This document shows, piece after piece, positions 8,593 to 9,498 of a stretch of 11,253 nucleotides of DNA (the stretch's first letter is position 1; each line of letters opens with the position of its first letter). The stretch spans positions 1 to 11,253 of the forward strand of contig DXJF01000144.1 of the NCBI GenBank assembly GCA_019057375.1. The letters run 5' to 3'. The stretch is from Candidatus Heimdallarchaeota archaeon (GTDB lineage Archaea > Asgardarchaeota > Heimdallarchaeia > Heimdallarchaeales > Heimdallarchaeaceae). A program made the translations under genes and the position numbers. A model generated the notes under the pieces. It searched no databases, was not told the origin of the DNA, and saw nothing but the letters and a program-made list of their open reading frames with translations.

Positions 8593-9498
8593 ATGTCAAT
8601 AGAAACACCATTTGAACGCTGTAGAAATACAAGAGAAGTACATAGATTAGAATGTATAGATGAGAGAGAAGGTAGACGGAGAGTTTGTGAAGATGAGAGA
8701 GAAGGAAGCTATGAAGCATGTGATAATTGGGCGAAAAAATATGAGTGCTGTGATTGGTGGCCTTGTAGCACGGTATGTGCTATTCTCGTCTGGTTTGGAA
8801 AATGGATCTGCAAAGCTTGGAGAACTGTTACTTATACCTTTTGTGTTTTATTTGCGTGGATTACCTATACCTTCTGTGTTGCTTGGGCTTGGGTGAAACA
8901 TATTATTTGTGTCGTTATTGCAATATTAATTTGTTTCCCCTCCTTATTCTCAGCAAACGAGAAATCATATGATATGGAAGAATGTATTTATGGATGGAAC
9001 GTAGCTTACAGAATAGAAGGAACCAAATGTAATTTAGAGATTACAGTAAGAATCAGACTAAATCCAGATGCAGGAGTAACTAATACTAATCTAAATGCTC
9101 AGAGTCAAATATGGGAAACAGCGATAGAATCAACTTGGTCTAATCAATTTCAACTACAAAGATCAGATGGAGAATGCAATTGTGTAAACTATACTGTATC
9201 TTTTAATGTCGAGTTTGTTAATTCTAATGAACATCACGTTGTACGAATTCGAACTGGTTCAGGAAGAGAAAATATGACAAATTGGTATATAACAACAACT
9301 GGTGGAACAGCATCCCATGAATTTGGACATATGATTGGTTTTCCTGATGAATATACTGCACCAGAGTGTCCTGACAGAAATGTAACTTCAGACAATAGTA
9401 TTATGCAGACTACAATTGGTGCCCCACGTGAAAGACACTATGAACCTTTTGCTGAATGGATATCAAACAGAACTTGTTGTAAATACGAGGTAACATAA
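8593..9498 (+). CDS. Cys-ladder membrane/secreted zinc metalloprotease (metzincin-type HExxHxxGxxD), 301 aa
   Basis: HEFGHMIGFPDEY at 9316-9354 and a Met-turn-like SIM (ATG 9403). The N-terminal ~120 aa carry 13 Cys. Four N-x-T sequons (NYT, NMT, NVT, NRT). The track's GTG 8584 lies inside the AGGTGA SD (8582-8587), so ATG 8593 is the likelier start. Confidence 0.85.
   Translation: MSIETPFERCRNTREVHRLECIDEREGRRRVCEDEREGSYEACDNWAKKYECCDWWPCSTVCAILVWFGKWICKAWRTVTYTFCVLFAWITYTFCVAWAWVKHIICVVIAILICFPSLFSANEKSYDMEECIYGWNVAYRIEGTKCNLEITVRIRLNPDAGVTNTNLNAQSQIWETAIESTWSNQFQLQRSDGECNCVNYTVSFNVEFVNSNEHHVVRIRTGSGRENMTNWYITTTGGTASHEFGHMIGFPDEYTAPECPDRNVTSDNSIMQTTIGAPRERHYEPFAEWISNRTCCKYEVT
8658..8880 (+). 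repeat. Two pairs of intragenic direct repeats with 33-bp offset
   Basis: AGATGAGAGAGAAGG occurs at 8658-8672 and 8691-8705 (15/15). TTACTTATACCTTTTGTGTT 8828-8847 vs TTACCTATACCTTCTGTGTT 8861-8880 (18/20). Confidence 0.9.

Follow-up and report, generated by a model that had tools for sequence, protein, structure and literature searches.

What is an unusually regular ladder of cysteines doing at the front of a small archaeal metalloprotease? The question is raised by contig DXJF01000144.1 of Candidatus Heimdallarchaeota archaeon (GenBank assembly GCA_019057375.1), of which the whole analysed stretch, 11,253 nucleotides in length, is referred to here as the window. A preliminary description of this sequence had drawn attention to the segment 8620-8934, which runs from the codon of C13 through that of C117, and had proposed a disulfide-stapled helical hairpin with one charged and one hydrophobic arm. 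The analysis presented here indicates that residues ~9-117 very probably form an antiparallel two-helix hairpin, which belongs to a family of modules fused to diverse enzymes across many bacterial phyla as well as a few Asgard archaea, and in which the two arms mostly carry matched numbers of cysteine rungs. As regards its function, the reading slightly favoured overall is that of a two-faced rod with a cysteine seam, which would hold its enzyme at a membrane, would be zipped by disulfides, and would act with the participation of a small membrane protein bearing a cysteine motif.

Residue numbers throughout are counted from the GTG at 8584, the start adopted in the preliminary description, from which the open reading frame (ORF) 8584-9498(+) reads as 304 residues. 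The reading frame is real, whereas the GTG is probably not the start. From the sequence, ATG 8593 is the likely start of the hairpin-metalloprotease gene, being favoured both by the identical database protein P0002 and by a start junction which is kept in the Heimdallarchaeota relative L002; this codon sits five bases 3' of a GGTGA. With ATG 8593 as the start, the true residue numbers are 3 lower than those given here. Translation places cysteines at positions 13, 24, 35, 46, 55, 56, 61, 65, 76, 87, 98, 109 and 117, exactly as had been described, and a further seven cysteines occur in the C-terminal domain. Within residues 1-125, seven cysteine pairs lie exactly 11 residues apart, while the other spacings from 2 to 19 give at most two pairs each, and seven pairs at this spacing were reached by only 1 of 200,000 shuffles of the same residues. 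The composition attributed to the two arms was also found, with the first rich in E and R and the second rich in W, V, F, T and I. No tandem repeat was detected at the DNA level in the ladder region, which indicates that the ladder repeats are old and have diverged. The gene is present as a single copy in the source genome, which is 89% complete.

A search with the whole protein returned 38 relatives, 15 of them with the hairpin and the others consisting of the protease only, at ~210 amino acids (aa). Full-length homologues, at 38-71% identity, keep the ladder cysteines and differ in repeat number; C13, C24, C35 and C46 of arm 1, together with C76, C98 and C109 of arm 2, are invariant across 16 homologues. 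The 11-residue spacing, on whose conservation the preliminary description had staked its proposal, is thus kept in homologues. With a profile of the hairpin only, run against 1.8 billion representative proteins, 254 clusters were obtained at E<=1e-3 and 177 at E<=1e-10, the former figure being an upper bound since at least one match is a false positive, namely P0141, a leucine-rich-repeat protein with periodic cysteines. The pattern search around CCxWWPC that had been suggested as a means of defining the family was also carried out, using a degenerate DNA pattern for CCxWWPCxWxC, and matched at least 120 places in the genome collection. Here and in the locus counts given further on, the figures apply among the matches listed: at least 83 are genuine ladder genes, while ~37 are chance matches without a ladder, which were used as negative controls. 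The ladder genes, with their varied cargo domains, define a family found in Bacteroidota, Actinomycetota, Acidobacteriota, Pseudomonadota, Verrucomicrobiota, Nitrospirota, Desulfobacterota, Bacillota and others.

In most members the hairpin is N-terminal, often with the motif 'MPxCIE' at residue 3-6, and no signal peptide is found. In other members the hairpin is C-terminal and preceded by one to four hydrophobic segments, or it is internal to chains of 1,000-1,500 residues. The cargoes comprise phospholipase C (PLC)/acid phosphatase (PF04185), GlxA-like Kelch/glyoxal-oxidase, GH1, GH16 and S8 subtilases, as well as M12 and M64 peptidases, GDPD, FAD (flavin adenine dinucleotide)-linked oxidases and domains of no known family. 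The preliminary description had been unable to assign the architecture to a named family, and this remains the case, with no model in Pfam-A or NCBIfam covering the hairpin and no Pfam match at E<=1. An ESM Atlas feature search with residues 1-125 gave no usable match, and no description of the module, of CX10C repeats or of hendecad cysteine hairpins was found in the open-access literature or in bioRxiv preprints. Among sampled genomes of the Asgard phylum, the hairpin is present in 3 of 301, all three belonging to one Heimdallarchaeota-like genus, and it is likely that the archaeal hairpin was acquired from bacteria. A 148-aa ORF from the window's own genus (L129:1474-1920(+)) shows a weak match to the hairpin profile (E 8e-8), with a W-rich periodic pattern retained and most of the ladder cysteines lost; it may be a decayed or cysteine-free relative of the module.

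The architecture of the hairpin was predicted with AlphaFold2 (AF2), using as input an alignment of the 16 full-length homologues (A1). The model consists of a helix at residues 9-52, a loop at 53-60 and a second helix at 61-117, followed by a mixed alpha/beta domain, with block values of the predicted local distance difference test (pLDDT) of 84-93 along both helices, a mean pLDDT of 88.7 and a predicted template modelling score (pTM) of 0.68 for the whole model. The two predicted helices support the antiparallel hairpin, polar in one arm and hydrophobic in the other, that had been put forward. A beta-strand reading of the repeats was also considered and was rejected in view of the AF2 helices; an odd period of 11 would moreover alternate the cysteines between the two faces of a strand. 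Since 11 residues correspond to three turns of a slightly overwound helix, the ladder cysteines all come to lie on one face. The family consensus for arm 1 is C-[ST]-[EQ]-W-A-D-[EQ]-G-Y-N-E, with a net charge of ~-1 per repeat and a negative arm in 161 of 197 proteins, and that for arm 2 is C-V-A-W-[VT]-W-V-S-N-x-V. When these consensus repeats are laid on an 11/3 helical wheel, our own reading is that C0, W/Y3, G7 and Y8 of arm 1, together with C0, W3, S7 and V10 of arm 2, would make up the seam face, while V1, A2, W5, V6 and x9 of arm 2 would make up a continuous exposed hydrophobic face.

How the two arms are matched can be examined across the family, as a CC-x4-C-x3-C knuckle is present in 197 family proteins and provides a common reference, from which rungs were counted outward, arm 1 from the first knuckle cysteine and arm 2 from the fourth. 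Equal rung numbers in both arms were found in 161 of these 197 proteins (n = 3 to 12, r = 0.86), a figure reached by none of 10,000 permutations. The unequal arms are mostly 4 vs. 5, and several of these proteins carry an extra N-terminal cysteine at irregular spacing. Even within the orthologous protease family alone, the rung count ranges from 5 to 8 with both arms changing together. No ladder has an internal gap, and in P0043, P0052, P0062, P0063, P0090 and P0105 a rung is skipped at the same place in both arms, after which cysteines follow in both. The first step off the knuckle tends to be symmetric as well, being 11/11 in 124 proteins and 7/7 in 68. The arms therefore very probably pair in a matched fashion, as had been claimed, with lengths that co-vary across the family, and it is the matched rung numbers which we favour as the strongest support for this pairing.

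The register of the pairing is a separate matter. The window protein has the knuckle, its polar arm 1 and its W/V-rich arm 2 are each predicted to be helical, and it carries five rungs in each arm (55, 46, 35, 24 and 13 vs. 65, 76, 87, 98 and 109). Equal rung numbers counted from the knuckle lead to the pairs 55-65, 56-61, 46-76, 35-87, 24-98 and 13-109, which from the sequence pattern are probably the true ones and in which all twelve ladder and knuckle cysteines are partnered, with five rungs per arm. The register given in the preliminary description (46/65, 35/76, 24/87 and 13/98) lies one rung off the family rule and leaves C109 and three loop cysteines unpartnered, so that it has been replaced here. 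That its pairs all sum to 111 is arithmetically true and uninformative about register, as two equally spaced ladders give a constant sum at any rung offset (100, 111, 122 and so on). C117 is also present in hairpin-less homologues and thus belongs to the cysteine set of the protease. Mutual information between the arms peaks on the antiparallel diagonal at the favoured register (7.69 vs. 7.02 and 6.77, at equal sample size), and sliding the register by one rung moves the covariation to the cells that geometry predicts, a modest effect which is supportive only. Three points nonetheless weigh against this matching of the arms or its register: the family sequences are related, so that the arm-count statistic overstates their independence; the first step in the window's clade is asymmetric, with 9 vs. 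11 residues, a feature common to 3 other proteins of the set; and the AF2 helix ends at 52 and 61 are closer to a sum of 113 than to 122.

The hairpin genes are also associated with small membrane proteins. Beside the bacterial hairpin genes, on the same strand and usually 0-60 nt away, either upstream or downstream, lies a gene for a protein of ~95-160 aa, in which an invariant C-G-C stands just ahead of two short hydrophobic segments, followed by an invariant G-K..G and a K/R-rich tail. By motif count this CGC protein occurs at 52 of 83 hairpin loci, and a hidden Markov model (HMM) detected it at 67 of 83, vs. 0 of 37 chance loci. The 16 loci without an HMM match are mostly those with C-terminal hairpins that have hydrophobic segments of their own, or loci cut at the gene; three C-terminal-hairpin members which were read (P0053, P0057 and P0089) carry a CDC motif. 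The CGC protein has no Pfam family. An identity as a holin was considered and rejected, as only Phage_holin_3_6 was matched, at E 0.03-0.036 and by 2 of 10 proteins, the likeness consisting of two hydrophobic segments and a basic tail. One subgroup of CGC proteins (for example L022:4319-4741, L023:3732-4157 and L053:2333-2764) ends in a conserved C-terminal Cys-Gly, so that a third conserved cysteine is placed on the membrane side where the CGC motif lies.

The CGC-family HMM found no match in the window, in L002, L003 or L124, or in the whole source genome (89% complete). Here the position of the bacterial partner, directly upstream of the hairpin gene, is taken by a gene for a 45-aa microprotein with a C-K-L-C motif. 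Its product is 91% identical in L002, where the codon differences comprise 9 synonymous and 4 non-synonymous changes, a pattern which points to purifying selection, and it was also found in L128. In the bacterial proteins P0005, P0009, P0012 and P0013, a CPxC motif and two hydrophobic segments are fused ahead of the hairpin, an N-terminus to which the CKLC microprotein bears a resemblance. Homology of either the CKLC microprotein or the fused CPxC N-terminus to the CGC family was rejected, with an hhalign probability of ~2%, so these proteins appear to resemble the CGC partner by analogy. What recurs in these cases is the placing of a CXC or CXXC motif at the membrane surface beside a cysteine-ladder hairpin.

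The arrangement can be brought together in a model which remains conditional in its later steps. The module would be a straight antiparallel hairpin of hendecad repeats, each of which would set one cysteine on the seam between the helices, with the four-cysteine knuckle as the chain reversal. Because one helix is polar and acidic and the other bears a continuous W/V/I face, the hairpin would amount to a rigid two-faced rod, the length of which would be set by the number of rungs. This rod may keep its enzyme, which in the window is a small metzincin, at a membrane or another hydrophobic surface, and its cysteine seam would be zipped by disulfides when the rod lies in an oxidising compartment. 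A small neighbour-encoded membrane protein with a cysteine motif would take part in the process, namely the CGC protein in bacteria and the CKLC microprotein in the window.

Whether the term 'disulfide-stapled' is correct is decided by the location in the cell, and the evidence on location is conflicting, so that disulfide bonding of the ladder cysteines and tethering of the hairpin to a membrane are each given about even chances. An outside location is suggested by the cargoes, most families of which usually act extracellularly, by the eight conserved cysteines of the protease domain, by the acidic arm 1, and by an R-rich loop between the fused hydrophobic segments of P0005-type proteins. Several observations weigh against a zipped rod at the outer surface. 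A signal peptide was found in no family member, and the hairpin-less protease homologues are without one too. The CGC partner has an acidic loop between its segments and a K/R-rich tail, charges which under the positive-inside rule place the CGC motif at the cytoplasmic face, where disulfides are unexpected. The 145-aa protein encoded downstream of the protease, described below, is also without a signal peptide. In P0060 and P0089, finally, arm 2 is largely polar, so that membrane contact is not universal. The first three of these observations count in favour of the same hairpin at the cytoplasmic face with its cysteines reduced, in which the ladder would help the helices to pack closely, bind metal or dock to the CGC/CxxC partner, while the hydrophobic arm in the inner leaflet would tether the enzyme. 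The largest subfamily is in keeping with this, as three extra hydrophobic helices stand between its hairpin and its cargo and would give an N-in hairpin with the cargo outside. We regard such an arrangement as rather unlikely nonetheless. The cysteine is strict at each rung, with no Ala, Ser or Gly within the ladders, and skips are paired, which is expected of paired chemistry and not of packing; two thiols per rung, with ~16 A (11 helix residues) between rungs, would make a poor Zn or Fe-S site; an acidic arm 1, with a net charge of -1 per repeat, is unusual for a segment on the cytoplasmic face; and the PLC and Kelch cargoes start right after the last rung, with no membrane-spanning segment between.

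Two further explanations dispense with a membrane-held paired hairpin. A soluble oligomerisation stalk, in which the W/V arms would bundle as a buried core of the trimer-of-hairpins type with the acidic arms outside and the enzymes at one end, would answer the point that a single partner helix cannot cover the hydrophobic arm, which something must do. A rung number varying from 3 to 12 is also reminiscent of spacer or stalk modules, and hendecad repeats are known from coiled coils in general to make straight helices. Such a stalk leaves no role for a membrane, whereas the gene is almost universally linked to small membrane proteins and many members have extra transmembrane segments beside the hairpin, and we consider it distinctly unlikely. 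The arms could instead be unpaired, arm 2 being a long signal-anchor or multi-pass membrane segment and arm 1 a cytoplasmic tail, with the periodic cysteines incidental. Arm 2 is indeed hydrophobic, at a mean Kyte-Doolittle value of ~+1 to +2, and stands where GlxA-like and PLC enzymes usually have a signal peptide or anchor. This explanation is nevertheless highly improbable, as it accounts neither for the matched rung numbers nor for the symmetric first steps and the paired skips, arm 2 reaches up to 130 residues, far beyond the thickness of a bilayer, and AF2 gives a continuous helix.

The cargo of the hairpin in the window is a small protease domain that shows the metzincin signature, consisting of HExxHxxGxxH/D and a Met-turn, in the form H245-E-F-G-H249...G252..D255 and S272-I-M274. 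Fold matches to matrix metalloproteinases, myroilysin, snapalysin and astacins are weak (E ~1e-2), so that membership in the metzincins rests on these motifs. Scores against Peptidase M6 models remained below the cut-offs, at 16.5 vs. 22 bits for PF05547 and 24.5 vs. 110.8 bits for TIGR03296. An Atlas search with the protease gave M6-like clusters and one cluster with a domain of similar fold behind a Tox-PAAR-like domain. The protease domain shares with snapalysin (M7), a metzincin whose third ligand is Asp, and with immune inhibitor A (M6) the HExxHxxGxxD motif and the Met-turn, together with weak sequence and fold matches; unlike these, it is ~180 aa long, has eight conserved cysteines and a partner gene of its own, and scores under the family cut-offs. 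The hairpin-less homologues P0024-P0039 have in place of the hairpin a conserved N-terminus, M-x-x-L-S-L-[KR]-G-[VI]-A-R-R-[YF]-x-x-I-T-G-x-F-S-V, which may be another targeting signal.

The partner gene, which encodes 145 aa, lies directly downstream of the hairpin-protease in L002, L003, L124, L128 and the P0014 contig, and its family comprises 43 clusters from bacteria and Heimdallarchaeota. The AF2 model of the protein has a pLDDT of 86, and Foldseek matched it to Mago chains of the exon-junction complex at E ~1e-4, with template modelling (TM) scores of 0.51-0.56. The gene was not found beside bacterial hairpin genes with other cargoes, which indicates that it goes with the protease and not with the hairpin; candidate roles for the protein are those of inhibitor, immunity protein or adaptor. 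The features of the locus are collected in Table 1.

Table 1. Positions of the hairpin-metalloprotease gene, its parts and its two neighbouring partner genes in the window.
Feature	Position	Strand	Basis
Microprotein gene, 45 aa: short charged N-tail, C-K-L-C, one 26-residue hydrophobic helix	8434..8571	+	
Hairpin-metalloprotease gene, 301 aa	8593..9498	+	Identical database protein P0002 also begins at ATG 8593
Arm 1, predicted polar, slightly acidic helix (residues 9-52; rung Cys 13/24/35/46)	8608..8739	+	AF2
Knuckle CC-x4-C-x3-C (CCDWWPCSTVC; C55, C56, C61, C65), predicted chain reversal	8746..8778	+	Motif, AF2 loop
Arm 2, predicted hydrophobic W/V/I/F/T helix (residues 61-117; rung Cys 65/76/87/98/109)	8764..8934	+	AF2
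Small metzincin-type zinc protease domain, HEFGHMIGFPDEY and SIM Met-turn	8950..9495	+	Motifs invariant in 16 homologues
Partner gene, 145 aa, Mago-nashi-like fold, no signal peptide	9514..9951	+	Conserved linkage

Several other genes have been identified in the window. Upstream of the locus and on the opposite strand, at 7589-8227(-), a 212-aa cysteine-rich membrane protein is encoded, with N-terminal clustered cysteines that include C-x-C and C-x2-C, followed by several hydrophobic helices; it has no Pfam or NCBIfam match. Three adjacent genes at 842-3249(-) encode a membrane protein, a JAB/MPN protease (PF01398) and an E2 ubiquitin-conjugating enzyme (PF00179), and look like an Asgard-type ubiquitin system. 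The membrane protein of this trio combines a linker rich in Ser, Arg and Thr with a Cys/His-rich segment at its C-terminus, which by eye is of RING-finger type and has no Pfam match. At 1-803(+), a TnpB/Cas12f-like gene, which is probably frameshifted, extends over two overlapping frames (1-474 and 378-803), the second with a Cas12f1-like TNB domain, and runs off the start of the contig.

To our knowledge, cross-helix cysteine staples have been described only with two or three rungs, in small proteins of eukaryotes and in peptides of plants. In the family described here the same staple principle would be extended into a rod of adjustable length, with 3-12 rungs, which is joined to phospholipases, oxidases, glycosidases and proteases. 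In enzyme families whose normal place of action is extracellular, the module stands in for the signal peptide or the membrane anchor. Its site and role could thus bring to light a so far unrecognised means by which enzymes are positioned at the cell envelope, and the matched arm lengths provide a clear structural prediction. A bolder analogy, to which we give little weight, is that the ladder and the neighbouring gene would be a prokaryotic counterpart of the Mia40/CHCH relay: enzymes without a signal peptide would cross the membrane by a route dependent on the small CXC/CXXC membrane protein, and rung-by-rung oxidation would trap the rod and its enzyme on the surface. If true, this relay-like reading would constitute a new mode of export or anchoring in many bacterial phyla and a few Asgard archaea.

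Known systems resemble the module in part. In CHCH or twin CX9C proteins, such as Cox17 and the substrates of Mia40, with COA6 as a CX9C-CX10C variant, the seam cysteines form an inner and an outer cross-helix disulfide, and the oxidase Mia40/CHCHD4 works through a CXC motif, CPC (PMC12114033; PMC6743065). The likeness lies in the antiparallel helix-loop-helix with cysteines on the facing seam, and in a gene-linked CGC protein which would stand where Mia40 has its CPC. CHCH proteins are nevertheless small, soluble and mitochondrial, with one CX9C motif per helix in a domain of ~60 aa, two rungs and neither a four-cysteine knuckle nor a hydrophobic arm, whereas the module has 3-12 rungs and CX10C spacing, is bacterial and archaeal, and shares no sequence similarity with them; the window protein itself has CX10C in place of CX9C, five rungs and no Pfam match at E<=1. 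Plant alpha-hairpinins, which are antimicrobial peptides of the form CX3C-Xn-CX3C, are disulfide-stapled helical hairpins (PMC11591084). They differ from the module in their four-residue spacing, in having two or three rungs, and in being stand-alone secreted peptides with no enzyme fusion. Amphipathic repeats of 11 residues also occur in alpha-synuclein, perilipins and apolipoproteins, where the hendecad keeps the face of a long helix straight along lipid; these are single helices that lack both cysteines and a partner helix and have a narrow hydrophobic face, unlike that of the module. Class I viral fusion proteins have a helical hairpin with a hydrophobic inner helix and a chain-reversal loop closed by cysteines (CX6CC), and are set apart by their heptad-based trimers, the lack of a ladder along the arms and an unrelated sequence. 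By analogy, the principle that the module would share with CHCH proteins and alpha-hairpinins is that of a helical hairpin stapled across its seam, and what sets the module apart is the combination of a four-cysteine knuckle, variable but matched rungs, a hydrophobic arm, modular enzyme cargoes and a linked membrane protein.

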